Source: Candidatus Magasanikbacteria bacterium RIFCSPHIGHO2_01_FULL_41_23 (GTDB lineage: Bacteria > Patescibacteriota > Patescibacteriia > Magasanikbacterales > UBA922). Taken from it: DNA of 64,000 nt. The notes beneath the pieces were generated by a model, which saw only the letters and a list, made by a program, of their open reading frames with translations, searched no databases and had not been told where the DNA came from. Positions 193 through 60,500 of this stretch are shown here, piece by piece (position 1 is the stretch's first letter; each line of letters begins with the position of its first letter). The stretch spans positions 10,546-74,545 of the forward strand of contig MFPT01000021.1 in assembly GCA_001782805.1 (NCBI GenBank). Reading direction: 5' to 3'. A program made the position numbers and the translations under genes.

Positions 193-3100
193 ATGAACTC
201 GCATCTCCGCTCCATGCTCGGACGACTGCAGTTATTGGCACAGAAAATTTGTCCCGCGTCGGGATCATCTTGGCGCACTCCGTGGATGGTATTTTTTGGT
301 ATATTGTTTTTGGGATTTTTTCTTTTAACCATTTCTCCGGCCAATGCTCAGTTCGAAACTGTAACCAATATTTTTATTATCGGCGCGGCGCATATTATGA
401 TTGTCGTCGCCAATATTGCCATTGGTTTAACTATTTTCTTTTTGCGTTTTTTCATCATGCTGGCCAGTTACAACAATTATATTGATGTTGACGTGGTGCA
501 ATTGGGCTGGATAATGGTGCGGGATGTGGCCAATATGTTTTTTGTCGTCGCGCTGTTGGTCATAGCCTTTGGCACTATTTTGGGTTTGGAAGAATATGAA
601 TGGAAAAAGAATTTGGTTAAACTTATTCTCGCCGCGATTTTAATTAATTTCAGCAATTTGATTTGCCAGCTGCTTATAGATGTTTCCCATGTTTTTAGCA
701 TTACTTTTTTGAATGCCATTTCGGCTACGGCCGGAGGCAATCTGATTAACATGTTCAAATTGGATCAAATAACGGCTTTGGCCGGTGCGGATGATACATC
801 GGGGATTGATATTGAATTGTTGGCCGCGGCTATACCGGCCATGATGTTCGCGCTTATGGCCGCGGCCGCGCTGGGATCATACGTGTATGTTATGGCGGCG
901 CGAGTGGTGGCATTGTGGGCTTTGATTATTTTTTCCCCGCTCGCTTTTATTTTTGGCGTTTTGCCCAAGACCAAAGGATATGCGGAAAAATGGTGGACTG
1001 AATTTAACAATAACATAATTGTCGTGCCGATAATGGTGTTTTTTTTGTGGCTGTCGTTTGCCACGTTGGGTTTGGGTAATATTGCGGAACAAATTCAAAC
1101 TGGTTTGCCCGCGGGTGTCCAGATAGATGGAGCGCAACAAGGTAAAACTGAATATAAGAAGACATCGTTATCATTATCCAAAGTAACCAGTTGGGAAAAT
1201 ATGGCCAGTTTTTTGGTTGCTTTTGCGTTTTTGATGCGCGGCATTCAAGAAACCGAACAAACCGGAGTTACTGGAGCCGGAGCCATCGGCTCGGCCGTGG
1301 ATTTTGCCAAAAAAGTCGGTACCATTGCCAGTGGGTATGCGGCGGGGAGATGGTTGGCGGGGAAGACGAGGGATGGAGTAGTTGGTGGATCCAAATGGGT
1401 GGGCAAAGAACTTGGTGTACATCTGGCCAAACGGGCCGGAGTTTACGATGTTCCCGAGCGAGTCGGTAATTGGTGGAAAGCCAGAGGCGTGGCATTTGAT
1501 AAACGAAGAAGCGAAGGTCCGCTTAGTGGTGTTGTCGATTCAAAAGAAGTAGGAGAAGGTGATCAAACTAAAGATGAAACGAAAAAATTGACCGATGAAC
1601 AAGTTAAGGCTGGTTGGTCAATGAGGTTTGATAGAGAAAAAAATAAAACTGTTGCCGAACAATGGGGTGTATTGAAAGATAAGGATGGAAATCCCAAATA
1701 CAAAAGTGGTTATCAAAAATTTCTCTCTCGTCGTCACGAAAAAATAATCGCTTCTCGCAAGACTTTGGAAAAAACCGAAGGAGAATTTAAAGATAATGAA
1801 GAATTAATGGGGAAGCGTACTGAGGCTCAGTCGTTTGTTACCGGTGCAGAAAGGAGAGAGAATAGAAAATTAGAAAAAGAAGGTTTTGTTGTCAAAGACT
1901 ATGATCGTGTCAAGCGTGGTATGCTTGAAATTGAAGAAGAACGGGCATCAGCAAAAACAGCCGAGTTTAAGAATAGAGGTAAAATGATTGCTCTTGGTAG
2001 CCAACGTCTAAAGGCAGAAGGAGGAAAACCTCTTGGTTTTCAAGAAGGCGGGACAGTTGCCGAGCAAATTGCGGGTCACAAAACCCGAGCGGAATTCTTT
2101 GAATCACGAGTTAACCAAATTCTCAAAACCGCAGAAAGTAAATATAAAGGCAGTGCAGCCGGTAAACGATTTTTGGAAGGAAAAATTCAAGCCGATTTGG
2201 AAATAAAGGCTCAAGAAGCAAAGACTAAAGAATTACAAGCAGGCGCCACGACGAGAATAGCTTTGACCGATACCACTGATGTTTTAGCGCGTACAATAGA
2301 GGCGGAAAAAGCCGCGCATTTAGAAGAACAAAGATTGGCAAGAGTCCAAAAAGCCGAAGAAAGAGAATTTTACAAAGGCGATCATGGCCAAGAAGAATTG
2401 CGTGAAGAAGCGGTTTTGAAAGAACAAATCGCGGCCAGTGAAGCGGGAATAAAAAAAGAAGAGGCTGAAGCCAAACGCGAAGTTGCTGAAGGTACAGGCA
2501 GTGGAGACGAAGCGAAAGAGCGAGAACACCTCTTTAAAGTAGCTCAAGACGAGAAAATCGCGGCGACAAAACAAGCAGGTGTTCGGGAATCTTTAGCGAC
2601 CAGTGTTGAAAAAAAGGCTGAATTGGTCTATGAGACATCAGACCCAGGTAAAGAAGAAAAAGAAAAAGAATTAACTGCCAAAGAAACCATTGCCGCCACC
2701 GAAGGAAAAATAAAGAAAGAAGAGGCTACTAGAAAAGCCGTACTTGCCACAGAAGACAGTAATGAATACAAGTTACAAATGGCGGAGAGGATTGCGGCGG
2801 AAAAAGGCGCAAAGTTGGAAGAGGGGAAGGTCGCGCTTGCAGAAAAAGAGGCCACCAAAGCGTATGTTTCTGGTACAGGTGCAGATACAATTACCCAAAC
2901 CAAAGAAGTTGAATTAAAAACAAAAGCCGAAGACGCGGAAATTAAACAACGTGAAGCCGAGGCAGACAGACAAGCGGCCAATAATTTAAAAGAAGTGTTT
3001 GCTAGAATCAATTTTTCGGAACAAGCAACAAAAGCGGCTGAAGATTTTGTAAAAAATATTAAAGAAGAAGACCTGAGAGATAAATTTAAATCAGCTTCTG

Positions 3101-5001
3101 AGCAAATGAAGGGATGGATGAAATTAGACGCCACGGCTTTGGCCACGGAAATTGAAAAATTTAAGACTGCCGGTCATACTCAAGGAATTGACGCGTATGT
3201 AGTGGCGTTGGGTCAAGCTCAATTGTTAAAAGTAACTACGAGTGATTCCGGTATTCGCCATAAACAAGCCGAGGATGCGGCGTCTGACGGTTTTGTGAAT
3301 AAATCTCGGTATGGAACCACTACTGCCTCAACTGCCTATTCTGATTTTTCCGATACCAAATTAAAGGATTATAAAAAACTGGAACGCACCGCCGCCATGA
3401 AAAAAGCCACCGATGTCCATGCTTTTTTAATGCACCAAAAAGAAAATTTGCCAGCGGGTCAAGAACTTGATCTTGATCAAACAGCGGAATTATATGCTGC
3501 CAGTTCTTATTTACAATCAGAAGCATGGAATGATGATCAGGCGGCGTATACATACTCTATGTTTGAAAAATTACAAAGACATCAAGCCGAAGTAGCGAAT
3601 AAAGGAAGTTCAACTGTCATGAAAACTGATGAAGCAGCACAGTGGACCACTATGGCGAAACAATATACTAGGTTGGGCTGGCTTGATAACAATGTTATTG
3701 ATGCTGGTGGTAATTTTGTATTGGATAATGAGAAAAAAGCAGATGGTACTGATGTCATTGATAAAACAAATGGAAAAGTAGTCAAAAAGGGGAAAGCCAT
3801 TGCCAAAAAATATACACGACAAAAAGCCGCGGATATGCAGAATTTAGCTGTTACAGGCGGTGATGTAAATTTAGTGGTTGCCCATCACCAAATTTCTGAA
3901 GCGGTTGATGCCAATGCTCGGGATGTTGAAAATGCTAAGCTTGAAGCAAGAAGTAGGATTATTGCGGATAAGAAAAGTGCTAATACAACATTAACAGACG
4001 AAACGGCCGCTGCATCGGCGGAAAAAGAAATTGAATCCGCAATGGCAGCTGCGGGTAAAGCTACAGCAAAAAATTATTGGGAATTGGCGGATGTTATTTT
4101 GAAATTAGGAACTAACACAACAGGCATCGTCGATGCTGCTGCTTTGAAAGTACGTTATGAAGAACATTCTGATTTGCTTCAAGACGCCACCAAATCATAC
4201 AAAGGTTTTGCACATGCCACCGGCCATGAAAAATTAGGTGGAAACCAAGGATTTGATGAAGAGGCTGATTCCTATCGTTTTATGACGGTAAGAGAGGGTC
4301 AGGCAGAAGTTCGGGCTGATCGGGTAAAAATGAAAACTCGCCAAATCTTAAATGGAGATCAGTATCATAGTAATGGTGGTGAATTAGATTTGGATACAGG
4401 GATAATTGATAATTTCTTGGAAGACACGCTTAATCTTACTATTGGTAAAATTACCCGATACCTTGATATGGTTGATATGCCTGAACGTTCTTTGAAAGGC
4501 GCGTTCTATTTACATAAAAATGAACAAGCAAAAGTAGTGCAAGGTACGGAAGGTGCTTTAAAAGATAAAAAAGTTGCGGTGTTGGGTGGAAATAAAGCCA
4601 TGCAAAAATTTGAAGCCGATGGTGATGTTGATGAAGAAAGTAAGACAAAGCATATGATGACACGTGGTGTTGTACCGGCTTTAATGTCAGGTCATAGAGG
4701 TTGGGCAGTCGCAGCCAGTAAATTATATGGCGGTCATGTTGTGGAGGCCGACGCTCAAAAAGGGACAATAAATATGCGGGTCGGTAATAAAGAATTTGCA
4801 ACTACGAAGAATGCGGCTGAACATGTTATTACTAATTTGGAATCAGATAAAGATTACTTTAAGGGTAGCGATCTTTATGGTCAAGAAAAAAGAATATTAG
4901 AGGCCATGAATCAGATTATCGCGGATTTTAATTCTGCACCTGCACCTGCATCTGCTGTTGATACTGCTGCTGCTGGTGAAGATGATACTCCTCCTACTTA
5001 A
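193..5001 (+). CDS. Giant polytopic membrane protein: N-terminal TrbL/VirB6-like multi-TM domain (~400 aa) plus a ~1200-aa K/E/A-rich low-complexity or coiled-coil C-terminal extension
   Basis: Uninterrupted 1602-codon ORF. The first ~330 aa carry 6-7 hydrophobic helices in a VirB6/TrbL-like layout. The rest is strongly biased to K, E, A, T and Q with EAK/KEE-type periodicity. It lies in one cluster with the PrgI-like and VirB4-like genes. Confidence 0.55.
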   Translation: MNSHLRSMLGRLQLLAQKICPASGSSWRTPWMVFFGILFLGFFLLTISPANAQFETVTNIFIIGAAHIMIVVANIAIGLTIFFLRFFIMLASYNNYIDVDVVQLGWIMVRDVANMFFVVALLVIAFGTILGLEEYEWKKNLVKLILAAILINFSNLICQLLIDVSHVFSITFLNAISATAGGNLINMFKLDQITALAGADDTSGIDIELLAAAIPAMMFALMAAAALGSYVYVMAARVVALWALIIFSPLAFIFGVLPKTKGYAEKWWTEFNNNIIVVPIMVFFLWLSFATLGLGNIAEQIQTGLPAGVQIDGAQQGKTEYKKTSLSLSKVTSWENMASFLVAFAFLMRGIQETEQTGVTGAGAIGSAVDFAKKVGTIASGYAAGRWLAGKTRDGVVGGSKWVGKELGVHLAKRAGVYDVPERVGNWWKARGVAFDKRRSEGPLSGVVDSKEVGEGDQTKDETKKLTDEQVKAGWSMRFDREKNKTVAEQWGVLKDKDGNPKYKSGYQKFLSRRHEKIIASRKTLEKTEGEFKDNEELMGKRTEAQSFVTGAERRENRKLEKEGFVVKDYDRVKRGMLEIEEERASAKTAEFKNRGKMIALGSQRLKAEGGKPLGFQEGGTVAEQIAGHKTRAEFFESRVNQILKTAESKYKGSAAGKRFLEGKIQADLEIKAQEAKTKELQAGATTRIALTDTTDVLARTIEAEKAAHLEEQRLARVQKAEEREFYKGDHGQEELREEAVLKEQIAASEAGIKKEEAEAKREVAEGTGSGDEAKEREHLFKVAQDEKIAATKQAGVRESLATSVEKKAELVYETSDPGKEEKEKELTAKETIAATEGKIKKEEATRKAVLATEDSNEYKLQMAERIAAEKGAKLEEGKVALAEKEATKAYVSGTGADTITQTKEVELKTKAEDAEIKQREAEADRQAANNLKEVFARINFSEQATKAAEDFVKNIKEEDLRDKFKSASEQMKGWMKLDATALATEIEKFKTAGHTQGIDAYVVALGQAQLLKVTTSDSGIRHKQAEDAASDGFVNKSRYGTTTASTAYSDFSDTKLKDYKKLERTAAMKKATDVHAFLMHQKENLPAGQELDLDQTAELYAASSYLQSEAWNDDQAAYTYSMFEKLQRHQAEVANKGSSTVMKTDEAAQWTTMAKQYTRLGWLDNNVIDAGGNFVLDNEKKADGTDVIDKTNGKVVKKGKAIAKKYTRQKAADMQNLAVTGGDVNLVVAHHQISEAVDANARDVENAKLEARSRIIADKKSANTTLTDETAAASAEKEIESAMAAAGKATAKNYWELADVILKLGTNTTGIVDAAALKVRYEEHSDLLQDATKSYKGFAHATGHEKLGGNQGFDEEADSYRFMTVREGQAEVRADRVKMKTRQILNGDQYHSNGGELDLDTGIIDNFLEDTLNLTIGKITRYLDMVDMPERSLKGAFYLHKNEQAKVVQGTEGALKDKKVAVLGGNKAMQKFEADGDVDEESKTKHMMTRGVVPALMSGHRGWAVAASKLYGGHVVEADAQKGTINMRVGNKEFATTKNAAEHVITNLESDKDYFKGSDLYGQEKRILEAMNQIIADFNSAPAPASAVDTAAAGEDDTPPT

Positions 5002-6277: not shown

Positions 6278-7222
6278 ATGCCCGCTCCATTATTTTCCTA
6301 TTGCCAAAATAATCCGCTCAAAAATGTCTCTGCTTTGGAGCGGCTTATTATGGCAGTTGAGCCTAGTGCGATTACGGATACCGCGCTTAGTGGTGTCGTG
6401 GAATACGCGGCTTTGATTCTTTCCGGTTTGCGCGATTTGGAACCGCGCGGATTGGCCGACAGTTATGTTACGCAAGTTTTGGGATTTATTGACACAAAAC
6501 TTGTGGAGCAAGTGGCGACTGATCCAGCCAAATCCGCGAGTAATGATCTCAATGAATTGGCAGTGGAATTGCTCCACTCTGCGGCCGCGATTGGCGTGGT
6601 GGAAGAAATTACGCCGTATACGGTTGAAGAATTGACCGAGATTATCAACAGTTCTGACGTTGATTTTAATCATGCTATTTTGGCCTTCACTATTGGCTAC
6701 GCGATTGTGAGTGGAGAAAAAGATTATGGATCTCTATTAATGCACATTCTCATGAATCATAAAGATGAAGAATTGCAAACGCCATACGAATGGATGGATG
6801 CGTTTTTGCTCGGTTTATTAATTCATAGTGCGTGGAGTTATTTTCCCGATGCCACGGATCGTGAACAGCAATTCATACTCCAACATTATTTTTATTATGC
6901 CATTATCATGGGCGTGCCGGTACAAAGTTGGTTGAATGTGGCGTTTGCTGCCAATCCCAAATTATTGCCGCATATATTGATGCAAAAATTAAGCAGTTCG
7001 CAAGAAGTGATTCCGGAGAATTCCGGATTAAGCAGTAGTGCGGATTTTGCCAATGTCATACGCGATTATATGTCTGCAGTCAATCAAAATTCCATTCCCA
7101 CTTTGGCCGCGGAAAAATTTTTGGGCAAATGGTATGGCAATGACGCGCAGGGAAATCAATATCGTCTATGGTTGCGCGCCGCGCTTGGTACTGCCTATCG
7201 TTTGCAAACGCGGAATTTGTAA
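6278..7222 (+). CDS. Hypothetical protein, tandem paralog of 5023..6276
   Basis: 314-aa ORF starting 2 nt after the previous stop. Shares a ~60-aa conserved core with the upstream gene. Confidence 0.6.
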   Translation: MPAPLFSYCQNNPLKNVSALERLIMAVEPSAITDTALSGVVEYAALILSGLRDLEPRGLADSYVTQVLGFIDTKLVEQVATDPAKSASNDLNELAVELLHSAAAIGVVEEITPYTVEELTEIINSSDVDFNHAILAFTIGYAIVSGEKDYGSLLMHILMNHKDEELQTPYEWMDAFLLGLLIHSAWSYFPDATDREQQFILQHYFYYAIIMGVPVQSWLNVAFAANPKLLPHILMQKLSSSQEVIPENSGLSSSADFANVIRDYMSAVNQNSIPTLAAEKFLGKWYGNDAQGNQYRLWLRAALGTAYRLQTRNL

Positions 7223-7273
7223 TGCGATTTTTTTGTGATATACTTCAATTAATTTAATTTTAAAAGGAGGGAT

Positions 7274-7777
7274 ATGAATTACAATCAAAATAATTTTGCT
7301 TTTATTGACAGCCAAAATTTACATTTTGGAATTTTGGAACAAGGTTGGAAGATTGATTATCGAAAATTTCGTAATTATTTAAGGAATAAATACGATATTA
7401 CAAAAGTTTTTATGTTTATGGGGTATTTACCCTCAGAACAAGCTTTATATACATTTCTTAGACAATCAGGGTTTACGTTAATCTTCAAACATGTGTCTAA
7501 GTTACTTGACGGTTCGGTAAAAGGTAATTGCGACGGTGAGATGATTTTACAAGCTATGATAGAGTATCCGAATTATCACCAAGCTTTGCTCATTACAGGG
7601 GATGGGGATTTTGTATGTTTGATAAAATATTTACAAAAACAGAATAAATTGTTGCAAGTAATTGCTCCAACATTAGAAAATTGTTCTAAATTTATTCGTG
7701 AAGTTGCCGGTAAAAAATTATTGTTTTTTAACGATTTACAATCAAAATTGTCATATAAAGACAAAAAGACCCTATAA
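7274..7777 (+). CDS. NYN-domain (LabA-like / DUF88) putative RNase
   Basis: Motifs FIDSQNL near the N-terminus, GNCDGEMI and ITGDGDF match the PIN-like NYN domain acidic residues. AGGAGG RBS 6 nt upstream of the ATG. Confidence 0.65.
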   Translation: MNYNQNNFAFIDSQNLHFGILEQGWKIDYRKFRNYLRNKYDITKVFMFMGYLPSEQALYTFLRQSGFTLIFKHVSKLLDGSVKGNCDGEMILQAMIEYPNYHQALLITGDGDFVCLIKYLQKQNKLLQVIAPTLENCSKFIREVAGKKLLFFNDLQSKLSYKDKKTL

Positions 7778-7887
7778 AGACAAAACAGTATAGGGGCATT
7801 CTTGCTGGGAAGGACCATACAAAGACAAAACAGTGTACAGGATATTCCCTCATGATTACTTTCTAAAGTATACAACACTACAAATAG

Positions 7888-8922
7888 TTGTCAAGCCAAG
7901 TTATGCCCAATCAACCCACAATTCTCGTAAAAAAATCCGACGGAACGACAATCCGGATGACTCTTGACGAAGTCAAAAAAATGAAGGCGGAGAAAAAAGC
8001 AGATAATCCTTTGTTGCCACAAGAATTAGAGACAGCACCAGAAACAGTGATCAAAAAAGCTGTGGAAATGTTAAAAACTCCGGAATTGGAACCGGCACCA
8101 GTGGAATTTTTATTAAAAGCCAGCGCCGAGCCACATCTTTTGCATGAAGAAATAGAATCGCACGAAGTTACCAGACCGGAATTAGTGACCGCGGTTTCGT
8201 ACGATCGCACGGTTGACGCCGTGCTTAAAAATGCTCGCTTAACTCCGAGTCCGGAACTAATGCCGCGATTTCAGTCACTCATTATGTCGCTTATAAAAGG
8301 CGTGCGTACTGTGGCGCAAGTAATGGAATACGCGAGCGCGCCGCTTCTGCGCGGAGGTTTGGCACTTTCGATCGCCGAGGCAGAACGTCTTGCCACGGCT
8401 TTGAACACACAAACCGGTTTGCCCAATAACCGATCGATTATTATTCCCAAACCCATGACTGCGCCTGCCTCCACGCCCTCAAACATTCAGGGATCAGTCA
8501 AAAATAATCCAACTTCAAATCGTCCTCACAACACAGGCGCGGCTTTTGTCCAAATGCATGATGTGCAAGCGCCGCAGTCCGCGCCAAGCACAAGCAATAA
8601 AGCAGTCATGGGTCCTATAGAAGAAATGAAAATTTTTTCTCTCCTTGATTGGCGTCGTCTCGCGGCTACGCCGGATAAAGCCAAAGAAATAATTTTAAGT
8701 AAATTTTCCGGCTGGAAAGATGAATCATTTTTTTTGTATCGTGATACCAGATTGGCCTGGTTGGAATCGCCATTGGTGCGCGAATATCAAGAAAAAGTTA
8801 TCACTGCCATCAATCAAAGTACGCGTTTGTCTGATATGGCTTCCGGATTTGCGGTGAAAAAAACCCTGACACCGGCTGACATTGCCGCGCTCGTTGAAGT
8901 GAATAGGGTACTTGCGGTATAA
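7888..8922 (+). CDS. Hypothetical Pro/Ser/Ala-rich protein
   Basis: 344-aa ORF in the same orientation inside the T4SS-like cluster. No recognisable motifs. Confidence 0.5.
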   Translation: MSSQVMPNQPTILVKKSDGTTIRMTLDEVKKMKAEKKADNPLLPQELETAPETVIKKAVEMLKTPELEPAPVEFLLKASAEPHLLHEEIESHEVTRPELVTAVSYDRTVDAVLKNARLTPSPELMPRFQSLIMSLIKGVRTVAQVMEYASAPLLRGGLALSIAEAERLATALNTQTGLPNNRSIIIPKPMTAPASTPSNIQGSVKNNPTSNRPHNTGAAFVQMHDVQAPQSAPSTSNKAVMGPIEEMKIFSLLDWRRLAATPDKAKEIILSKFSGWKDESFFLYRDTRLAWLESPLVREYQEKVITAINQSTRLSDMASGFAVKKTLTPADIAALVEVNRVLAV

Positions 8923-8956
8923 TACTCCTACGGCCATGTAATCAAATTTTTACCGC

Positions 8957-9385
8957 ATGCAACAATTTGTTGTTCCACAATTTATTGAAGTGGAAGATAA
9001 AATTTTCGGGCCGATTACGACTCGGCAATTTTTAATTTTATTGGCCGCGGGCACAGCCATATTTTTGTCGTATCGGTTTGGCGATTTGGCTTTATTTATT
9101 TTTACGGTTGTTTTTGTCGGCGGTTTTTCCGCGATTTTGGCTTTTGTAAAAGTGAATGGTCAAAATTTTCATTATTTTTTGCTGAATATTATACAAACCA
9201 TGCGCAAACCATCATTGCGCATTTGGCAAAAAAGTTACAATAAAGAAGAACTGAATTATTTGCGCAAGCGCGATGCCGATATTAAAATAGAGCCGCTCAT
9301 CGTGGTCACAGCAGTAAAAAAAGATCGGATTCGCGACTTGGCTCTGTTGGTTAATACGGGCGGTTTTTACAAGCCCGAGGAATAG
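8957..9385 (+). CDS. PrgI-family (VirB3-like) small membrane protein of Gram-positive-type conjugation / T4SS systems
   Basis: The N-terminus VPQFIEVEDKIFGPITTRQFLILLAAG matches the PrgI-family signature (VPK..ee.KIFG.T.RQ followed by two TM helices). It lies immediately upstream of the VirB4-like ATPase, as PrgI lies upstream of PrgJ. Confidence 0.65.
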   Translation: MQQFVVPQFIEVEDKIFGPITTRQFLILLAAGTAIFLSYRFGDLALFIFTVVFVGGFSAILAFVKVNGQNFHYFLLNIIQTMRKPSLRIWQKSYNKEELNYLRKRDADIKIEPLIVVTAVKKDRIRDLALLVNTGGFYKPEE

Positions 9386-9403
9386 CGCGCGTTCACCATA
9401 AAT

Positions 9404-10093
9404 ATGTCTGACGAAAAAATGAGAAAAAAAACCAAAAAACGGCCTTCATCACAGGCTCATTTGCCCATCGCGGAAATCAAAGACAGCGTGGTGATTTTAA
9501 AAGACGGCACATTGCGCGCGGTTATTTTGGTTTCCAGTTTGAATTTTGCTCTAAAATCCGAAGATGAACAAAATGCGATTATTTCCGCGTACGTTGGTTT
9601 TCTTAATTCACTGGATTTTCCAATTCAAATTGTAGTCCAATCGCGCAAATTGCAAATCAAACCCTATTTGGAAAAATTGCAGGGGATTGAACGGACACAA
9701 ACCAATGAATTGTTGCGCATCCAAACCGCGGATTATCGCGCGTTTGTGGAAGAGTTGGTGGAGATCGGGCAGATTATGACCAAACGTTATTATGTCATTG
9801 TGCCCTATGATCCGCTGAATAATCGGCGCAAGAATTTTTGGGCACGATTTAAAGAAGCGCTTAAACCGGGAATTACCATTCGTTTGCGTGAAGAGCGATT
9901 TCAGACACGCAAAAGTGAAATTGATTTGCGTTTGCGTCACATTATTGGCGGACTGTCCGGCATGGGACTCACCACAGTTCAGCTGGATACGCAATCTTTG
10001 ATTGAATTATATTATTCCACTTACAATCCGGATATCGCTTTTGCCGAAACATTGGGCACGATTGGCGATCTCCAAATTGAAGATATTTCATAA
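9404..10093 (+). CDS. VirB4/TraC-type ATPase, N-terminal domain (separate ORF; frame differs from the ATPase domain ORF)
   Basis: IKDSVVILKDGTLRAVILVSSLNF resembles the conserved N-terminal 'IxDGiixtkdGslxrvievepin' region of VirB4/TrbE/PrgJ. The stop at 10093 is followed 2 nt later by the ATG of the ATPase-domain ORF in another frame. Confidence 0.55.
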   Translation: MSDEKMRKKTKKRPSSQAHLPIAEIKDSVVILKDGTLRAVILVSSLNFALKSEDEQNAIISAYVGFLNSLDFPIQIVVQSRKLQIKPYLEKLQGIERTQTNELLRIQTADYRAFVEELVEIGQIMTKRYYVIVPYDPLNNRRKNFWARFKEALKPGITIRLREERFQTRKSEIDLRLRHIIGGLSGMGLTTVQLDTQSLIELYYSTYNPDIAFAETLGTIGDLQIEDIS

Positions 10094-10095
10094 GT

Positions 10096-11955
10096 ATGCC
10101 ATTTAAACCCATTGCCACCAATAAAAAAGGAATCAGTTCGGCAGCGCCGGACATTGAGAAAAAAAAACTGCAAAAAGAATTGATTACTTTGGAAGAAGAA
10201 CGGGTGTATCGCGAAGGCACGGTGGCCATTCGCGATTTGGTCGCGCCGTCCGCACTATCGGTTCAGTCCAATTTTGTGCAATTGGGCACGACTTTTTTGC
10301 GTACGATTTTTGTGATTACGTATCCGCGTTATATGTCAGTCGGCTGGAGTTCGCCGATTTTAAATTTAAATTTGACCATGGATTTGGCTATGTTTTTTTA
10401 TCCGGTCAATTCGGAAATTATTTTAAAACAGCTCAAGAAAAAAGTTGGCGCGCTGGAAGCGCAATTGTCCGGTGACGCGGAAAAAGGCGCGGCGCGTGAT
10501 CCGTTGCGCGAAACTGCTTTGCGCGATATTGAACAACTGCGCGATGATTTAACGCAAGGCGTGGAACATTTTTTTCAATTTGCTTTTTACGTTACGCTTT
10601 ACAGCCAAGACAAAAAAGAATTGGATAAAGTTACGGAAGACATTCAGAATATTTTTGGTTCCAAATTAATTTACAGCAAAAATGTTTTGTATCAGGCCGA
10701 ACAAGGTTTTACTTCAACGTTGCCGCTGGGGATTGATGAGTTGACGATTTCTTTTAACATGAATTCCTCGCCGATCGCGGCCTCGTTTCCGTTTATTTCC
10801 TCGGAATTAAGCAGTGATGATGGAATTTTGTATGGCATCAATCGCCATAATAACAGTTTAATTTTGTTTGATCGTTTTTCTTTGCAAAATGCCAATATGG
10901 TGGTTTTTGCCACTTCCGGAGCGGGAAAATCTTATGCTATTAAATTGGAAGTTTTGCGTAGTTTAATGATGGGAACTGACGTGATTGTGATTGATCCGGA
11001 AATGGAATATGAGCATTTGGCCGAGGCGGTTGGCGGAACTTATATCAGTATTTCTTTGGCTTCGGAAAGCAAAGTCAATCCGTTTGATTTGCCGCGTCCG
11101 GTTGGTCAGCAAATTTCCACCGAAGATATTATTCGCAGCGCAGTAATTACGATGAAAGGTTTGTTGCGGATTATGTTTGGCACACTGACGCCGCAGGAAG
11201 ATTCAATTTTGGATCGCGCGCTTTTGGAAACGTACGCGAAAAAAGACATTACAGCTACAGTTGATCTGACCACAGTCGAGCCGCCGATTATGCAGGATTT
11301 GCTGGATATTTTGGAAGGCATGACGGGCGCGGAAGTATTGGTTTTAAAATTGCGCAAATATACCGAAGGCACGTTTGCCGGATTATTCAATTCTCCGACC
11401 AATGTGAATGTGACCAATCAATTGGTTATTTTTAGCGTGCGTGATTTGGAAGATGAATTGCGGCCAATGGCGATTTATACGTTGGTGAATTATATTTGGA
11501 ATTTAGTTCGTTCCGAACAAAAACGGAGAATTTTGATTATTGATGAAGCGTGGTGGCTTATGAGTCACGAGGATTCGGCCAAATTCATTTACGCGCTCGT
11601 GAAGCGTTGTCGCAAATATTATTTGGGTGTGACGACCATTACCCAGGATGTGAATGATTTTTTACGTTCGCCATACGGACAGGCGATTGTAACCAATTCG
11701 GCTTTGCAACTTTTGCTCCGTCAATCACCCGCGGCCGTGGATATGATTCAACGCGTGTTTATGTTGACCGAAGGAGAAAAATATTTGCTTTTGGAAGGCG
11801 CGGTCGGTGAAGGCATATTTTTTGCCGGCAATAAACACGCGGCCATCAAAGTCGTGGCGTCTTATACCGAAGATCAACTCATCACGTCTGATCCCAAACA
11901 ATTATTGGAAATTGAAAAAGCCAAAAAAGAATTTGAAGAACAAATGGGAAAATAA
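10096..11955 (+). CDS. virB4: VirB4/TrbE/PrgJ-like T4SS ATPase, central and C-terminal ATPase domains
   Basis: Walker A VVFATSGAGKSYAIK and Walker B ILIIDEAWWLM. The architecture resembles VirB4/CagE/TraC. Together with the upstream ORF it gives ~848 aa, a typical VirB4 length. Confidence 0.75.
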   Translation: MPFKPIATNKKGISSAAPDIEKKKLQKELITLEEERVYREGTVAIRDLVAPSALSVQSNFVQLGTTFLRTIFVITYPRYMSVGWSSPILNLNLTMDLAMFFYPVNSEIILKQLKKKVGALEAQLSGDAEKGAARDPLRETALRDIEQLRDDLTQGVEHFFQFAFYVTLYSQDKKELDKVTEDIQNIFGSKLIYSKNVLYQAEQGFTSTLPLGIDELTISFNMNSSPIAASFPFISSELSSDDGILYGINRHNNSLILFDRFSLQNANMVVFATSGAGKSYAIKLEVLRSLMMGTDVIVIDPEMEYEHLAEAVGGTYISISLASESKVNPFDLPRPVGQQISTEDIIRSAVITMKGLLRIMFGTLTPQEDSILDRALLETYAKKDITATVDLTTVEPPIMQDLLDILEGMTGAEVLVLKLRKYTEGTFAGLFNSPTNVNVTNQLVIFSVRDLEDELRPMAIYTLVNYIWNLVRSEQKRRILIIDEAWWLMSHEDSAKFIYALVKRCRKYYLGVTTITQDVNDFLRSPYGQAIVTNSALQLLLRQSPAAVDMIQRVFMLTEGEKYLLLEGAVGEGIFFAGNKHAAIKVVASYTEDQLITSDPKQLLEIEKAKKEFEEQMGK

Positions 11956-11956
11956 T

Positions 11957-12150
11957 CCAATGCAACACCAAAACATCCACTATACCAATAAGCAAAATGG
12001 AGACGAATATACTTTTGCTGAAAGCTGAGTATATTGACTTGTTGAGAATGCATAATCCGTCAGACTATCAGTTGAACAAAAGGATATCGTTGAATTTTGC
12101 TTAAGACTTAGAATAAATAAAGTTTGATTAAGACTTAGAAAATGGAGTTT
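11957..12150 (+). repeat. Copy 1 of a ~200-nt dispersed intergenic repeat (second copy at 35643..35900)
   Basis: Near-identical blocks: AATGCAACACC..AATAAGCAAA.TGGAG.., GAAAGCTGAGTATA.TGACTTGTT.AGAATGCATAATCCGT.AGACTATCAGTTGAACAAAAGGATATCGT.GAATTTTG.TTAAGACTTAGAA..AATGGAGTTTG. There is an internal direct repeat TTAAGACTTAGAA. Confidence 0.7.
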
Positions 12151-12177
12151 GATTACGAGGGAATAAGATGCTATACT
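12149..12177 (+). promoter_or_regulatory. Putative sigma70-type promoter (TTGATT-17-TATACT) with the -10 only 8 nt from the ATG of the next gene (leaderless-like)
   Basis: Hexamers read directly from the sequence. Spacing 17 nt. ATG at 12186. Confidence 0.3.
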
Positions 12178-12185
12178 AAATACAT

Positions 12186-12788
12186 ATGATGACTCTCCGC
12201 AAACGCATTTTTATCATTAACATTATCGTTACGGCCATAATTTTGGCAATTTTTTTGTATTTGGTATATGGTCGCGAATCTGACACTAGTATAATAACTT
12301 CTGACAGCGAATCCGAAACATCGCCTACAGCGCCAAAAACCATTACCAATCAAGATAAAACCAACATAACAAAACCAGCCATCGCCAAACCGATTTTAGC
12401 TTTGCCGGCGTATTCCGAAGAATTATACGTCCGTCAACTAGCCAAAATTTTTGTGGAACGTTTTGCCAGTTATTCCACGCAAAATGATAATAATAATATC
12501 ACTGATTCACTTGATTTGGCGACAGTTAGTATGCAAACTTGGATGAAAACACAGCTAAAGCCGGGAAGTCGAGATTATGAAGGCGTGGTAACTCAAGTTC
12601 TGGCTTCTTCGGTTAAAGAAAAAACCGCTTCCAGCGCCACTGTTGACTTGCAAATTCAACAAAATTTTGAACAAAAAACCGCCACAGCCGTTGGCGCTAC
12701 GCAAAAAGAAATGCGTCAAAAAAAAGGAACGGTTAAATTGCTTAAAATTGGCGATCAATGGAAAATTGATGGTCTGTATTGGGAATAA
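12186..12788 (+). CDS. Hypothetical membrane-anchored protein (N-terminal TM helix; possible NTF2-like / VirB8-like periplasmic domain)
   Basis: 200-aa ORF. The N-terminus RKRIFIINIIVTAIILAIFLYLVY is a single TM helix. The remainder is soluble and ends in a beta-rich region. Size and topology resemble VirB8-type proteins, but there is no sequence-level proof. Confidence 0.45.
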   Translation: MMTLRKRIFIINIIVTAIILAIFLYLVYGRESDTSIITSDSESETSPTAPKTITNQDKTNITKPAIAKPILALPAYSEELYVRQLAKIFVERFASYSTQNDNNNITDSLDLATVSMQTWMKTQLKPGSRDYEGVVTQVLASSVKEKTASSATVDLQIQQNFEQKTATAVGATQKEMRQKKGTVKLLKIGDQWKIDGLYWE

Positions 12789-12804
12789 TAGTATGAAGGA
12801 GGGG

Positions 12805-13467
12805 ATGAAAAAACTAACTGATTTTTTACTGGATTGCGTATTTCCTTATTTTTGTTTACAATGCGGCGCATCTGATGTTTATTTTTGCTTTCTTTGTCGA
12901 CAAGCCGATTGGTTTAAAAATCCGACGGGAATTTTTGTGCATGGCAACGAGATTGATTCTTCCTTAACTCGAATCATCAGTTTGACTAAATATAATTCGG
13001 AAGTTGACGCGGCACGACTGATTGAGGATTTTAAATATGGTTTTATAAATCAGGCCAGTACGGAAATTAACGTCTGGCTAAAAAATACCGCGTGGTTAAA
13101 TAAAGAAATCGCAGATTGTGATTTAATAATTCCCGTGCCACTGCATCGCCGTCGTTTTGCCGAACGAGGATTTAATCAAGCGGAAATTATTGCCGGTTTT
13201 ATGAGTACGATTATACATCGTCCGATTGATTTTTTGTCTTTAATTCGTGCTAAATCAACCAAACAACAAGCCAAACTGGGTCGCGAAAAACGACTGAAGA
13301 ATGTGATTGACGCCTTTGTCTGCAAAAATAAAGAAAAAATTGTCGGCCAAAATATTTTGTTGGTTGACGATGTGTACACCACCGGCGCTACATTGGAGGA
13401 ATGCGCTAAAGTTTTATTGGCGACGGGCGCGAAAAATGTTTCCAGTTTTACTTTGGCTCACGGCTAA
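12805..13467 (+). CDS. comFC: ComF-family protein (ComFC-like phosphoribosyltransferase, competence-associated)
   Basis: N-terminal Cys-rich zinc-finger-like region (CLQCG..CFLCRQ). PRTase motif ILLVDDVYTTGATL near the C-terminus. GGAGG RBS 5 nt upstream of the ATG at 12805. The ORF track extends the frame upstream to 12643, which overlaps the previous gene. Confidence 0.7.
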   Translation: MKKLTDFLLDCVFPYFCLQCGASDVYFCFLCRQADWFKNPTGIFVHGNEIDSSLTRIISLTKYNSEVDAARLIEDFKYGFINQASTEINVWLKNTAWLNKEIADCDLIIPVPLHRRRFAERGFNQAEIIAGFMSTIIHRPIDFLSLIRAKSTKQQAKLGREKRLKNVIDAFVCKNKEKIVGQNILLVDDVYTTGATLEECAKVLLATGAKNVSSFTLAHG

Positions 13468-13485
13468 TAATTCCAGAAATAATAT

Positions 13486-14244
13486 TTAATTATATTGTGC
13501 CTCAACACTGCAATGTTTGCCATTGCCGATTATCACATGATCGATCAAATGAATTCCCATTATTTTGCCGGCGGCAATCAGTTGTTCGGTTATTTCTATA
13601 TCAGCCGCGCTGGGAGTAACAATTCCCGATGGATGATTGTGTACCAAAATTACAGCCGCGGCTCCGTATTCCACGGCTGGTTTAAATACTTCGCGCGGAT
13701 GGATCAAATTGGCATTGATTGTGCCAATCGATAAAACTTCATCATGAATTACGCGATAATGAGAATTTAAATAAATGCCGCGCAGATGTTCTTTGGGCAA
13801 GCGTTCCATATCGCGCGCATAATTAAATACATCTTTGGCTGTGCGCACCATTGTCAATCCGCTTTTATTTTTTTGGAAAAAGCGTCGACCAAGTTCACCA
13901 CATGCTACGATCTGCGCGGCTTTGTGAATGGGAATTTCCAAGTCTGTTGCCAGCGTGGCCGGATTGGTTTGGGCGGACAATGCTCGCTCGCCATATTCCT
14001 TGACTACGCGCGCTGACATCGCCAATACATCTTCTTTTGTAGAGCCGGTGTTAATAATTACTGCCAAAAGTTCTTGTACGGTCAAATTGCTTGGACCATA
14101 TTTGAGCAATTTTTCGCGCGGTTTGTCTTCGCTGGGCATGTCTTTGATGCGCAAAAAATACGTACGACCACTGGACAAAGCATCGGCTTCCAGCAAAATC
14201 AAACCGGTTTCGGGAATTGTATACGTATTCGTTTGAATATTCAT
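13486..14244 (-). CDS. radC: RadC-family (JAB/MPN domain) DNA repair protein
   Basis: HhH-type N-terminal region. JAMM-like motif VHNHPSG. C-terminus AADIEITEQL. Typical UPF0758/RadC architecture. Confidence 0.8.
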   Translation of the reverse strand: MNIQTNTYTIPETGLILLEADALSSGRTYFLRIKDMPSEDKPREKLLKYGPSNLTVQELLAVIINTGSTKEDVLAMSARVVKEYGERALSAQTNPATLATDLEIPIHKAAQIVACGELGRRFFQKNKSGLTMVRTAKDVFNYARDMERLPKEHLRGIYLNSHYRVIHDEVLSIGTINANLIHPREVFKPAVEYGAAAVILVHNHPSGIVTPSAADIEITEQLIAAGKIMGIHLIDHVIIGNGKHCSVEAQYN

Positions 14245-14783: not shown

Positions 14784-14873
14784 TGGCGGAGAGGGAGGGA
14801 TTCGAACCCTCGAGGGATTTGACTCCCTGCAGCTTTAGCAAAGCTGTACGATCGGCCACTCTGACACCTCTCC
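14784..14873 (-). tRNA. tRNA-Ser (anticodon GCU), class II long variable arm, CCA encoded
   Basis: The reverse complement folds as GGAGAGG..T-arm GGTTCGAATCC..CCTCTCC-G-CCA. Anticodon loop UUGCUAA. Long variable arm and G73 discriminator. Confidence 0.8.
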
Positions 14874-14930
14874 ATTTTTTATTTTTTTTGCTTGCTCTGA
14901 GCGATCCCGACATAGTCGGGAGAGTCGAAG

Positions 14931-15019
14931 GGCGGAGAGATAGAGATTCGAACTCTAGAGGCTCTTGCGAGCCCGGCAGTTTAGTAAACTGCTGCCTTAA
15001 ACCACTCGGCCATCTCTCC
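14931..15019 (-). tRNA. Class II (Ser-type) tRNA with atypical anticodon loop UUACUAA (apparent anticodon ACU); CCA not encoded
   Basis: GGAGAGA-U-GGCCGAGUGGUUUAAGGC-A-GCAGU-UUACUAA-ACUGC-long arm-UAGAG-UUCGAAU-CUCUA-UCUCUCC-G. The body closely parallels the adjacent tRNA-Ser(UGA). Its loop differs from the tRNA-Ser(GCU) loop only by A at position 34. Confidence 0.55.
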
Positions 15020-15094
15020 ATAAATTCTGATATTGTGGGCTTGCCCTGAGCGAGCGACTTGTGGTGAGCGGAGTCGAAACCAAGCGAGTCGAAG

Positions 15095-15183
15095 GGCGGA
15101 GAGAGTGAGATTCGAACTCACGGAGGACTTGCATCCTCAACAGTTTTCAAGACTGTCGCCTTAAACCACTCAGCCATCTCTCC
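15095..15183 (-). tRNA. tRNA-Ser (anticodon UGA), class II
   Basis: GGAGAGA-U-GGCUGAGUGGUUUAAGGC-G-ACAGU-CUUGAAA-ACUGU-long arm-GUGAG-UUCGAAU-CUCAC-UCUCUCC-G. Confidence 0.8.
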
Positions 15184-15282
15184 AGAACTTTATCCTATAA
15201 ACAGAAAAACTATAGCAAAATTAAGTATTTTTCGCAAGTGTATTGTGCCGTGATTTTTGCCATGATATACTCAAGTTGAACT

Positions 15283-36089: not shown

Positions 36090-36166
36090 TGGTGGACCTG
36101 ACGGGAATCGAACCCGTTCTACTACGTGTCAAGGGTAGTGTGCTCAACCAGATACACCACAGGCCC
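36090..36166 (-). tRNA. tRNA with short variable arm, CCA encoded, anticodon loop CUUGACA (apparent anticodon UGA); isotype uncertain
   Basis: GGGCCUG-UG-GUGU-AUCUGGUUGA-GCAC-A-CUACC-CUUGACA-CGUAG-UAGA-ACGGG-UUCGAUU-CCCGU-CAGGUCC-A-CCA. The stem has a C31.C39 mismatch, position 37 is C, and there is one acceptor-stem G.U pair. Confidence 0.55.
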
Positions 36167-57545: not shown

Positions 57546-60500
57546 ATGACTGATTTTGTCCATCTTCATGTCCACTCGCATTATTCGCTCTTGAATGGCT
57601 TAACCAAAATAAAAGCCTTGGTTAAGGCGGCGAAAGCGCGGGGATTTTCCGCTTTAGCATTGACTGATTATGGATCAATGTATGGCGCTATTGAATTTTA
57701 TCAAGCGTGTTTGGCCGAAGGAATTAAACCGATTATTGGATTTGAAGCATACATTGCTCCACGAAGTAGACTTGATAAAGATCCGGCGCATGATTCGACA
57801 TTGTATCATTTAATATTACTCGCGGAAAATTATAATGGCTATAAAAATTTAATGAAGCTGTCGTCGTTTGGCCATTTGGAAGGATTTTTTAATGGGAAAC
57901 CACGCATTGATAAAGAATTGTTGCGGAAATATCATGAAAATATAATTGTTTTGTCCGGACCGATTGAAGGCGAAATTCCCACATTAATAAAAAATGGTGA
58001 GATTGCCAAAGCCAAAGCAGTGGCGCGGGAATATCAAGAAATGTTCAGTTCGACTTCGCTCACCGCGAGTGGATCGGATTATTTTTATTTGGAATTGGAA
58101 GATCATCCGGCAATCTCCGGCCAAATTGAAGTGAATACTAAATTAATTGAATTGGGAAAAGAATTGGGAATTCCGTTGGTGGTAACGCGTGATGTACATT
58201 ATTTAAATCCGGATGATGATGAGGCGCAAGATATTTTGCGTTGTATTGCCGAAGGTTGGCGCGTGGATCAGCCGAATAGAATTGATTATCGCGGCGTTGA
58301 TCGGTCGTTCGCGACTGGCGATGATATTGCCGCGCGTTTTCGGCATGTTCCGGAAGCAATTGCCAATACGATAAAAATTGCGGAGCGTGTGAACATTCAA
58401 ATAGAATTAAACAAATGGCATTTTGCGCCAGTGGAATTACCTCCGGGCAAAACTGCGGACGATGTTTTGGCCGAAGAAGCACATAATCGCGTTACGATTT
58501 ATTTTAAAGAAAAAACGGCTGAACTTACTGAACGTTTGAATTATGAATTGGAAATTATTAAAACAAAAAAATATTCGCCGTATTTTTTGTGCGTGGCGGA
58601 TTTTGTGCGTTATGCCAAAGATCATGGGATTGTGGAATCAACGCGTGGTTCAGCCGCTGGTTCATTGGTGTCGTATGTTATGGGAATTACGACTGTGGAT
58701 CCGATGCGATTTAATTTGCCGTTTGAACGATTTTTAAATCCGTTTCGTCCCAGTCCACCGGATGTGGATACGGATTTTGCCGATGATCGTCGCGATGAAA
58801 TGATTGAATATGTCACGAAAAAATATGGCGCGGATAAAGTGGCGCAAATTATTACGTTTGGAACTATGGCCGCGCGCGCCAGTGTGCGCGATGTTGGTCG
58901 TGCTTTGGGATTCGCGTATTCTTTTTGCGATCAAGTGGCCAAATTAATTCCGCAAGGCGCGCAAGGTTTTCCCATGACGATTGGTCGCGCACTGACGGAA
59001 GAACCGGATTTGAAAAAATTATATGAACAAAACGCGGATGTAAAACGTTTGTTGGATTTGGCGCGAAAAGTTGAAGGCTGTGCGCGGCATACTTCCATTC
59101 ATGCGGCCGGAGTGGTGATTGCGCCGACCGCGCTGATGGATTTTTCGCCCGTGCAATATGAAACCGGTGGCACGCGGATTACCACGCAATATGAAATGAA
59201 ATCCGTGGAAGCGGCCGGAGTTTTAAAAAATGATTTTTTGGGAATTCGCAATTTGGCGATTTTGGGAAACGCGGTGGAATTCGTGAAAAAAACCACGGGT
59301 CAAGAAATTGATATTTATAATTTACCGTTGGACGATGCCAAAGTTTATGAAATGTTGGCGCGCGGAGAAACGATGGGTGTTTTTCAGCTTGGTGGTTCGG
59401 GTATGACGCGCTGGCTAAAAGAACTGAAACCAAACCGGATTGAAGATATTATGGCCATGGTGGCGCTGTATCGTCCTGGACCAATGGAATCTATTCCCGA
59501 ATATATTCGCCGCAAATATAATCCTGAGGCGGTAAAATTTTTTGATTCGCGGTTGGAAAAAATTCTCGGCGCTTCGTATGGATTGTTGGTATATCAAGAC
59601 GATGTGATGTTGACTGCGATCGCACTCGCTGGTTATGATTGGATGGAAGCGGATAAGTTTCGCAAAGCCATGGGCAAAAAAATTCCCGAAGAAATGGCCA
59701 AACAAAAAGAACAATTTTATAAAGGTTGTCAGGAAATAGGCAAAGTAAAAAAAGATATTGTTGATGAAATTTGGCATGCGATTGAACCGTTTGCCGCGTA
59801 TGGGTTTAATAAATGTTTGGTAGGAGAGACTGAAATTGTGGACGCGGCAACCGGAGCAATAAGAACCATCAAGGAAATGTACGAGCAAAAATCGAGGATG
59901 TCGGTATTAAGTTTGTCGGGCTATAAGAAATTAATTAAAAGAAAAATAATTGATATCTATAAAAACGGGAAGAAGCCAGTGTGGGAAATTACTATTCGCA
60001 GTGGCCGGAAAATTACTGCCACGGGCAATCATCCCTTTTTAAAATTTGGCGGCTGGTTCAATTTAGAAAAATTATGTGTCGGTGATTTGATCGCCGTACC
60101 AAGAAAAATTGACTATCGGCCGAGTGCTGATTTAGATTCTAAAAAATTAAAAGTATTGGGCTATTTGTTATCAGAAGGAAATCTCTGTCATCCTTACGGC
60201 GTTTATTTTTATTCTTCAGTCGAGGTAGAAATCCAAGATTTTATTACCGCTGTAAAATCATTTTCTAATTCTAATGTTACGATTAATAGAAGTAAAAGCG
60301 CAGCAGCTGTCTATGTGGGGCAAATCAATCCCAAATTTAGGAACAATTTAATGTTGTGGCTTAAAGAGCTGGGTTTGTATAACAAAAAAGCCACGGAAAA
60401 ATTTATTCCCGAATTTATTTTCAAATTATCACCGGAAAAAATCGCAGTGTTGGTTGGATCGATGTGGCAGGGCGATGGCTGTGTACATGATGACAAAAAT

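Follow-up and report, generated by a model that had tools for sequence, protein, structure and literature searches.

In this Candidatus Magasanikbacteria genome (Patescibacteria/CPR), the VirB4 motor of a chromosomal type IV secretion system (T4SS) is encoded by two adjacent genes and is very probably normal and functional, a reading to which we assign a probability of roughly 0.9. The upstream gene, ORF1, corresponds to the initial ~200 residues of the N-terminal domain of VirB4, and the downstream gene, ORF2, to the remainder of this domain together with the P-loop ATPase domain. The two-gene VirB4 arrangement is conserved in Patescibacteria and is already known from the literature (PMC12102498). 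Positions refer to the window, i.e., the whole 64,000-nt stretch of DNA that was analysed.

Organization of the two-gene locus

The original prediction described a 229-aa frame ending with TAA at 10093 and a second frame opening with ATG at 10096 in a different frame, and assigned both pieces to a VirB4 of about 848 aa. These coordinates are confirmed and the identification is correct (Table 1); 229 and 619 residues add up to 848, compared with 796 for the fused VirB4 of E. faecalis. The sequence across the junction is TAAGTATG. The frame offset from ORF1 to ORF2, (10096-9404) mod 3, is 2, which puts ORF2 in the -1 frame relative to ORF1. A TGA with its last base at 10080 closes the ORF2 frame 15 nt before the ORF2 ATG. 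Beyond its own TAA, the ORF1 frame meets the next stop after 30 codons. A promoter and terminator scan of 7200..13600 returned signals at or near chance levels, and nothing at the ORF1/ORF2 junction.

Table 1 Features of the split virB4 locus and its surroundings in the window
Feature	Position	Strand	Description
1602-aa protein	193..5001	+	About seven N-terminal hydrophobic segments (hydropathy scan); outside the 4-kb flanks of the synteny survey
344-aa protein	7888..8922	+	No family match; homologue upstream of PrgI in 76/80 loci, median 30% identity
PrgI-family (VirB3-like) protein	8957..9385	+	Small membrane protein, 142 aa; PF12666, 41.2 bits (cut-off 27); 18 nt upstream of ORF1
ORF1	9404..10093	+	TrsD-like stand-alone protein, 229 aa; counterpart of VirB4 N-terminal-domain residues 1 to ~200
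LIELYYSTYNP	9998..10030	+	Last conserved ORF1 helix, where the folded part stops ahead of the cut; L202, Y207 and N208 nearly invariant (alignment A1)
Gene junction TAA-GT-ATG	10091..10098	+	ORF1 stop (TAA, 10091-10093), 2-nt spacer, ORF2 start (ATG, 10096) in another frame
ORF2	10096..11955	+	VirB4-type ATPase, 619 aa, TrsE-like, without the first ~200 residues
DLVAPSA	10234..10254	+	First conserved ORF2 element after a variable leader of ~46 residues; VirB4 homology resumes
Walker A, GAGKS	10918..10932	+	ORF2 residues 275-279; invariant (alignment A3, 58 homologues)
Walker B region, LIIDEAW	11533..11553	+	ORF2 residues 480-486; D483, E484, A485 and W486 invariant (A3, 58 homologues)
200-aa bitopic protein	12186..12788	+	N-terminal TM segment (hydrophobic residues 2-32); downstream of ORF2 in 69/80 loci

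ORF2 is a VirB4-type ATPase with a truncated N-terminal domain

The best curated model for ORF2 is that of the monoderm CD1110 VirB4-like family (NCBIfam NF045971), which it matches with 342.1 bits, above the cut-off of 325, over model positions 174-730 of 752. The Pfam domains P-loop_TraG (102.7 bits) and AAA_10 are present, and the VirB4 C-terminal domain of PDB entry 4AG5 aligns from ORF2 residue 238 onwards (E 3e-45). Its 120 closest homologues range from 600 to 634 aa in length, and all named ones among them are from Magasanikbacteria or Patescibacteria. An AlphaFold2 model of ORF2, built from a shallow alignment (at least 81% identity), was unusable (pLDDT 46.7, pTM 0.31) and was kept out of the fold search.

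Alignment of ORF2 with the fused E. faecalis VirB4 by hhalign covers residues 227-773 of 796, and DLVAPSA is aligned with FIVPSK at residue 227; the corresponding elements are DLIAPDA in Pontibacillus and DLLAPSS in C. perfringens. ORF2 thus lacks a complete N-terminal domain, starting at about position 174-240 in full-length models and at about 180-227 in the fused 796-aa protein, and the missing part is supplied by ORF1. The ATPase domain had been predicted to begin at 10096, with the gene junction as the boundary between the two domains. The ORF2 ATG does lie at this position; however, residues ~48-240 of ORF2 are still VirB4 N-terminal-domain sequence, i.e., the cut falls within the N-terminal domain, and the alignment with the crystallised C-terminal domain (4AG5) opens only at residue 238.

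ORF1 is a distant relative of TrsD and of the VirB4 N terminus

As judged from sequence comparison, ORF1 is distantly homologous both to staphylococcal TrsD and to VirB4 over its initial ~200 residues. It scores 23.1 bits (E 5.2e-5) against the NCBIfam TrsD/TraD model NF041427, for which the cut-off is 200 bits and authentic S. aureus TrsD reaches 227.7 bits; since 23 bits compare with 200, ORF1 is a distant relative outside the narrow NCBIfam TrsD subfamily. By the broad usage of PMC12102498 it is TrsD-like, with homology to both TrsD and the VirB4 N terminus that is detectable over the full length, a size of 229 aa where ~200-230 aa are expected, and a position 2 nt upstream of ORF2. Against VirB4_CagE (TIGR00929, cut-off 643 bits), ORF1 and ORF2 score 23.8 and 114.3 bits, respectively; both are homologous to VirB4_CagE, but lie outside the proteobacterial subfamily.

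ORF1 belongs to a recognised family of TrsD-like proteins, probably Pfam PF26593 'TraC-like', which has already been reported for the phylum. A precomputed PF26593 match exists for the protein of identical sequence and for each of the 120 closest ORF1 homologues, and a local Pfam-A scan at E<=10 gave none. These 120 homologues are 222-245 aa long; the 150 best representatives of the family at 50% clustering are likewise short separate proteins, of 124-443 aa, with full-length matches at 36-53% identity. The last conserved helix, LIELYYSTYNP, has counterparts in Pontibacillus (EVLELFYTSYNK), in S. aureus TrsD (YLNQFYALYDY) and at approximately residues 193-203 of the fused E. faecalis VirB4 (ERLSLFSYFL).

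It is very improbable that ORF1 is instead an unrelated accessory protein, e.g., a chaperone-like one, placed upstream of an N-terminally short VirB4, rather than a detached piece of VirB4. On the side against the VirB4 reading, the profile of ORF1 runs colinearly with the N terminus of the fused E. faecalis VirB4 at a level that is not significant (E 0.14), and the AlphaFold2 model of ORF1 is of only moderate quality (pLDDT 63, pTM 0.50). A PDB sequence search with an 83-sequence ORF1 profile gave a chance match only (E 0.72).

The split is conserved and both genes are under purifying selection

Comparison with orthologous loci had been proposed as a check of the split, and 72 analysable loci from distinct Magasanikbacteria species were compared at the junction. 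In every one of them the ORF1 homologue stops at the equivalent protein position and the ORF2 homologue opens with a conserved M-[A/P]-F-x-P, for which ATG is the start codon in 71. The split is thus conserved, and its spacing and frame are variable: the spacers range from 1 to 287 nt (median 14.5) and exceed 60 nt in 20 of the 72 loci, frame offsets 0, 1 and 2 occur 27, 26 and 19 times, and the ORF1 homologue ends with TAA, TAG or TGA in 43, 25 and 4 cases, respectively. With 20 spacers beyond 60 nt, tight translational coupling is not a conserved requirement, and the junction geometry across some 70 species shows that ORF1 and ORF2 are independent translation units. The pair is kept in 78 of 80 related loci; the contigs of the other two end before ORF2. 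The substitution pattern (pN 0.10-0.12 for ORF1 and 0.06-0.08 for ORF2, pS ~0.7 and saturated; dN/dS ~0.03-0.06 in both) indicates strong purifying selection on both genes. The original prediction had left three options, i.e., two genuine genes, an inactivating frameshift of recent date or a sequencing indel, and these data strongly support the first.

The 2-nt distance between the frames and the location of ORF2 in the -1 frame could be read as programmed ribosomal frameshifting or stop-codon bypass that fuses the two products into a full-length VirB4. We consider such recoding very improbable, since only 15 nt of open ORF2 frame precede the ATG and no canonical slippery heptamer occurs in 10081-10090; furthermore, the three frame offsets are similarly frequent among orthologues and the spacers reach 287 nt, conditions under which conservation of any one recoding mechanism is not possible.

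A frameshift or nonsense mutation that recently split an intact virB4, leaving a pseudogene and an inactivated secretion system, has in its favor the bare observation of two VirB4-like frames that differ in phase and lie 2 nt apart. Its probability is close to nil, and it is refuted by the presence of the split in all 72 loci, with varied spacers, frames and stop codons, and by the low dN/dS; in addition, neither the 120 closest homologues nor the 150 best-matching cluster representatives include a fused protein, both Walker motifs are intact, ORF2 begins with an ATG and a conserved N-terminal motif of its own, and the sequence divergence of the related loci excludes one assembly error common to them. 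Equally negligible is a sequencing or assembly indel near 10085-10100 that broke one long frame: homopolymer errors can occur in a metagenome-assembled genome such as this one, however, at least 24 contigs encode the identical 229-aa product, four independent assemblies from different samples match the window without a difference over 70 nt of the junction (two from ENA, Logan SRR2090155 and JGI 3300002529), the split is conserved across species, and the stops flanking the junction in either frame defeat a one-base repair.

Gene neighbourhood

A synteny survey of the 80 related loci with 4-kb flanks recovers the PrgI gene upstream of ORF1 in 80 of 80, and the order 344-aa protein, PrgI, ORF1, ORF2, 200-aa protein and ComF in 68-80 of 80 loci, the ComF-family gene lying just downstream of the T4SS core in 68 of these Magasanikbacteria loci. 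VirB3-like, TrsD-like and VirB4 genes stand together on the chromosome (8957..11955), as in the Patescibacteria-clade T4SS, and the same window also encodes TopA, RecG, IMPDH, PheT and DnaE. Neither a relaxase nor a coupling protein was detected among the scanned ORFs, a subset of those in the window.

PrgI has one strongly hydrophobic segment (residues 34-54). No significant Pfam or NCBIfam match was obtained for the 1602-, 417-, 314-, 344- and 200-aa proteins; for the last of these, the family scan gave only an insignificant DUF4878 match (E 0.074). The topology of the 200-aa protein resembles that of VirB8, a label that is a guess, and the 1602-aa protein might, by a similar guess from topology, be a candidate VirB6-like channel subunit. 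The 1602-aa protein was also considered as a paralogue of a 1606-aa protein, which was rejected, the latter being DnaE.

Comparison with known systems

In the survey by Quinonero-Coronel et al. (2025, PMC12102498), 2,272 TrsD homologues are reported from a set of 2,221 Patescibacteria assemblies; 1,664 of these homologues adjoin virB4, and TrsD homologues next to virB4 are the most abundant T4SS component of the phylum. There, TrsD is treated as a separate component with remote homology to the VirB4 N terminus, the VirB4 proteins of Patescibacteria form a monophyletic clade nested in MPF-FATA, and VirB3 is fused to VirB4 in some systems, the reverse of a split. The word TrsD is absent from the main text of Guglielmini et al. 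(2014, PMC4027160), and the TrsD-VirB4 homology is therefore cited from PMC12102498. The same paper describes the TrsD homologue as essential in Ca. Southlakia epibionticum, and the essential TrsD and virB4 locus of this organism is that of Wang et al. (2023, PMC10633639). A TrsD-like gene directly upstream of virB4, next to a PrgI/VirB3-like gene and on a chromosome among housekeeping genes, is common to the Patescibacteria-clade T4SS and to the present locus; the closest ORF1 and ORF2 homologues are all from Patescibacteria, no difference was found, and the locus represents the Magasanikbacteria instance. The cut point and the junction geometry are mapped here, and not in the accessible part of PMC12102498.

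The staphylococcal trsD/trsE pair (traD/traE; pGO1/pSK41 type, here pV030-8, NC_010279.1) has the same order of VirB3-like protein, TrsD and VirB4-like ATPase, with 227 and 670 aa compared with 229 and 619 aa, and the cut is at an equivalent position, i.e., ORF2 residue 47 pairs with TrsE residue ~34, and the alignment of the ORF1 profile spans TrsD residues 31-217. Sequence identity is very low, however, and in staphylococci the system is a conjugative one that resides on plasmids and includes a relaxase, whereas those of Patescibacteria are described in PMC12102498 as chromosomal and generally devoid of a relaxase. The order PrgI, hypothetical protein and VirB4 (CD1110 family) also occurs on Bacillota megaplasmids, i.e., Pontibacillus NZ_CP062975.1 and C. 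perfringens pJFP838A (NZ_CP013615.1), whose N-terminal proteins are the closest relatives of ORF1 found outside the CPR (~30% identity, E down to 1e-21), and their ATPases have a DL[IL]AP motif near the N terminus that matches DLVAPSA of ORF2. They differ in having longer N-terminal proteins (274-312 aa) and clear Shine-Dalgarno sequences, and the Pontibacillus gene pair has an 11-nt overlap. Compared with single-chain VirB4 proteins (TrwK of R388, PDB codes 7O41 and 7O42; the PrgJ-like 796-aa E. faecalis protein; the T. pseudethanolicus C-terminal domain, 4AG5), one polypeptide is replaced by two, which together cover the whole length, and the ATPase fold and motifs are conserved.

Implications for the secretion motor

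We propose that prgI, ORF1 and ORF2, with spacers of 18 and 2 nt, are co-transcribed, and that the two VirB4 products would reassemble non-covalently into a VirB4-like protomer. The cut coincides with the short linker of fused VirB4 between the LIELYYSTYNP helix and the DLVAPSA strand, and the same cut in S. aureus trsD/trsE and the Bacillota megaplasmids suggests an old, inherited gene architecture. By analogy with the R388 structure, in which VirB3 wraps the N-terminal domain of VirB4, the TrsD-like piece may form a membrane-proximal module that the VirB3-like PrgI surrounds, and an ORF2 hexamer would hydrolyze ATP for assembly and secretion.

That the fission is more than neutral, and allows the N-terminal module to serve as an adaptor with a dosage or regulation of its own, is a tentative and rather unlikely proposition. 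Among the 150 diverse ORF1-family representatives, 43 (at least 290 aa) have long disordered P/Q/T-rich extensions, and the longer members carry such tails only and no ATPase; most of those inspected have the extension at the free C terminus created by the cut, and a few at the N terminus. In a fused protein, such a C-terminal tail would be impossible. The almost invariant extreme N terminus of ORF2, M-[A/P]-F-x-P, might be a docking peptide. Both observations fit an adaptor without proving it. Separately, the ComF synteny would be compatible with a DNA-related role for this apparently relaxase-less machine.

For annotation, flags such as pseudogene or assembly error would be wrong for this locus, and the 229-aa gene should be named TrsD-like or VirB4 N-terminal-domain protein and not "hypothetical". 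The locus is a further instance of the Patescibacteria T4SS, which published work describes as widespread and chromosomal and, in the single cultured system that has been tested, as essential for epibiotic growth. The small addition made here is the exact point of the cut, inside the N-terminal domain, a position common to staphylococcal trsD/trsE and the Bacillota megaplasmids.

Identity of the two VirB4 genes

A VirB4-type ATPase encoded between 9404 and 11955 as two ORFs in different frames had been proposed in the original prediction, and this is borne out by the sequence itself and by its ORFs in all six frames, with a TrsD-like gene (ORF1) followed by the ATPase gene (ORF2). At their junction, TAAGTATG, the frame offset is 2. 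The ORF2 frame is closed upstream by a TGA ending at 10080, and the ORF1 frame reaches another stop 30 codons beyond its TAA; therefore, a single long ORF could not be restored by any single-base change.

Features of the type IV secretion (T4SS) gene row and of other loci in the window
Feature	Position	Strand	Remarks
1602-aa protein	193..5001	+	~7 N-terminal hydrophobic segments; rest long, charged, repeat-poor
NYN-domain gene (predicted RNase)	7274..7777	+	Within the T4SS gene row
PrgI-family, VirB3-like protein	8957..9385	+	Directly upstream of ORF1
ORF1	9404..10093	+	229 aa; TAA stop 10091-10093
ORF2	10096..11955	+	619 aa; ATG at 10096
Walker A, GAGKS	ORF2 residues 275-279		Intact, invariant among homologues
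Walker B, LIIDEAW	ORF2 residues 480-486		Intact, invariant among homologues
ComF-family gene (ComFC/GntX-like phosphoribosyltransferase)	12793..13467	+	Just 3' of T4SS core; syntenic in 68/80 loci
Three tandem tRNA-Ser genes	14784..15184	-	
tRNA, 77 nt	36090..36166	-	Rfam 49.9 bits; ARAGORN label Ser(tga), yet without long variable arm
DnaE, DNA polymerase III alpha subunit	57546..62366	+	1606 aa; intein with LAGLIDADG homing endonuclease

With 342 bits, ORF2 lies above the curated cut-off (325 bits) of the NCBIfam model "VirB4-like conjugal transfer ATPase, CD1110 family"; it spans only model positions 174-730 of 752 and has Pfam matches to P-loop_TraG and AAA_10. The crystallised VirB4 C-terminal domain (4AG5) aligns with ORF2 from residue 238 on (E 3e-45). 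ORF1 matches three VirB4 models at their N-terminus, namely VirB4_plasma (91-234/894, E 6.6e-10), TIGR00929 (3-181/792) and CD1110 (11-107/752); these matches are weak, yet consistent and colinear. The TrsD/TraD family is also matched, and a profile built from 83 diverse homologues of ORF1 aligns end to end to S. aureus TrsD (E 3.8e-6, 180 columns). A hydropathy scan found no TM segment in ORF1.

Position of the cut

In a fused 796-aa VirB4 encoded on an E. faecalis plasmid, residues 227-773 align to ORF2 residues 48-579. LIELYYSTYNP (residues 199-209), the last helix conserved in ORF1, has its counterpart in ERLSLFSYFL of the fused protein (~residues 193-203), just ahead of the FIVPSK strand, which aligns to DLVAPSA of ORF2 (residues 47-53). 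Together, these correspondences place the cut in a short linker within the VirB4 N-terminal domain. The assignment of the ORFs as two VirB4 pieces holds, but not the proposed border between N-terminal and ATPase domains, since homology to the fused protein resumes inside the N-terminal domain. The two products tile a full VirB4, the only extra parts being a low-confidence ORF1 tail and a variable 46-residue ORF2 leader.

Conservation of the split

A genuine two-gene arrangement, a recent frameshift and a sequencing indel had all been considered. Scanning one genome for each GTDB species gave 80 loci with 55-84% identity to ORF1, and junction statistics were derived from the 72 where homology allowed both genes to be placed. 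The comparison with orthologous loci put forward in the original prediction shows the first option to be correct: in 72/72 a stop at the equivalent position ends the ORF1 homologue, and in 71 the ORF2 homologue starts with ATG, its N-terminal M-[A/P]-F-x-P being conserved. Spacer lengths span 1-287 nt, with a median of 14.5 and 20 loci above 60 nt, frame offsets 0, 1 and 2 occur in 27, 26 and 19 loci, and all three stop codons are in use. This variation also excludes a conserved recoding mechanism joining the two genes.

A recent frameshift is excluded by the split in all 72 loci, by the stand-alone lengths of the homologues (222-245 aa for ORF1 and 600-634 aa for ORF2 among the 120 closest) and by dN/dS of ~0.03-0.06. 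Non-synonymous divergence from three orthologues amounts to 0.10-0.12 in ORF1 and 0.06-0.08 in ORF2, with synonymous sites saturated (pS ~0.7). A sequencing indel is excluded by conservation across species and by a 70-nt junction that is identical in four independent assemblies (two ENA, Logan SRR2090155, JGI 3300002529). At least 24 contigs encode a protein identical to the ORF1 product.

A search of 1.84 billion cluster representatives gave 2,444 matches to ORF1 at E<=1e-3. The 150 best are 124-443 aa long (36-53% identity for full-length matches), and no similarity to ORF2 was found within the longer ones. Forty-three of these 150 distant representatives (among P0122-P0270) reach 290-443 aa through disordered, low-complexity P/Q/T/A-rich extensions on the TrsD-like domain, mostly C-terminal and in a few cases N-terminal.

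One locus, L010 (CAZKXD010000023.1, 866..1551), was left out of the junction statistics; there, alignment of the ORF2 homologue begins only at residue 140, in a different arrangement with a 684-nt gap, which suggests local disruption or an assembly problem of the contig. The title "uncultured Gammaproteobacteria bacterium" is given to many public MAG records with clear Magasanikbacteria-type loci (L002-L076, 58-84% identity to ORF1), and Saccharibacteria to one; these are probably taxonomic mislabels at deposit.

Gene context

The window is chromosomal, holding TopA, RecG, IMPDH, Clp ATPase, PheT and DnaE. The order 344-aa gene, PrgI, ORF1, ORF2, 200-aa gene and ComF is kept in 68-80 of the 80 loci. 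In the window, RadC follows ComF on the opposite strand. The NYN-domain gene was not detected in these loci and may therefore be a local insertion. It is the sole gene of the row with a strong Shine-Dalgarno sequence (aaaggaggg); most cluster genes, including ORF2, have none. The 1602-aa protein, without family match in Pfam or NCBIfam, is possibly an extended VirB6-like subunit.

Elsewhere, the DnaE intein comprises Intein_splicing (Pfam, residues 772-1187) and LAGLIDADG_3 (residues 971-1047). The middle tRNA-Ser (15020..14930) carries TTACTAA as its anticodon loop; the resulting anticodon, ACU with A34, is unusual for tRNA-Ser. Its neighbours are normal Ser(UGA) and Ser(GCU) genes.

Proposed mechanism and relation to other systems

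Spacers of 18 nt (prgI-ORF1) and 2 nt (ORF1-ORF2), and a promoter/terminator scan that found no terminator-like site at the ORF1/ORF2 junction, make co-transcription of prgI, ORF1 and ORF2 probable. The 2-nt spacing would allow termination-reinitiation in the window, which the long spacers in many relatives show is not obligatory. Based on Macé et al., the two products would most likely reassemble non-covalently; ORF2 would form the hexameric motor, and PrgI/VirB3 would contact ORF1 as the module proximal to the membrane.

Plasmid tblastn places ORF1 relatives, with E values as low as 1e-21 and ~30% identity, on Bacillota megaplasmids. Pontibacillus and C. perfringens pJFP838A share the order PrgI, 274-312-aa "hypothetical protein" and 621-641-aa VirB4, the hypothetical proteins matching the same VirB4 N-terminal model positions as ORF1. 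In S. aureus pV030-8, trsD (227 aa) immediately precedes the 670-aa VirB4-like trsE, with an equivalent cut position. These parallels argue that the split architecture is old and common to the monoderm (MPF-FATA) T4SS lineage.

Quinonero-Coronel et al. 2025 (PMC12102498) count 2,272 TrsD homologues, 1,664 of which are associated with virB4, in 2,221 Patescibacteria assemblies, and state that the homologue of Ca. Southlakia epibionticum, whose essential T4SS locus was described by Wang et al. 2023 (PMC10633639), is essential. The two-gene VirB4 of the window is therefore an instance of a published pattern, to which the location of the cut and the statistics on the junctions add modestly.
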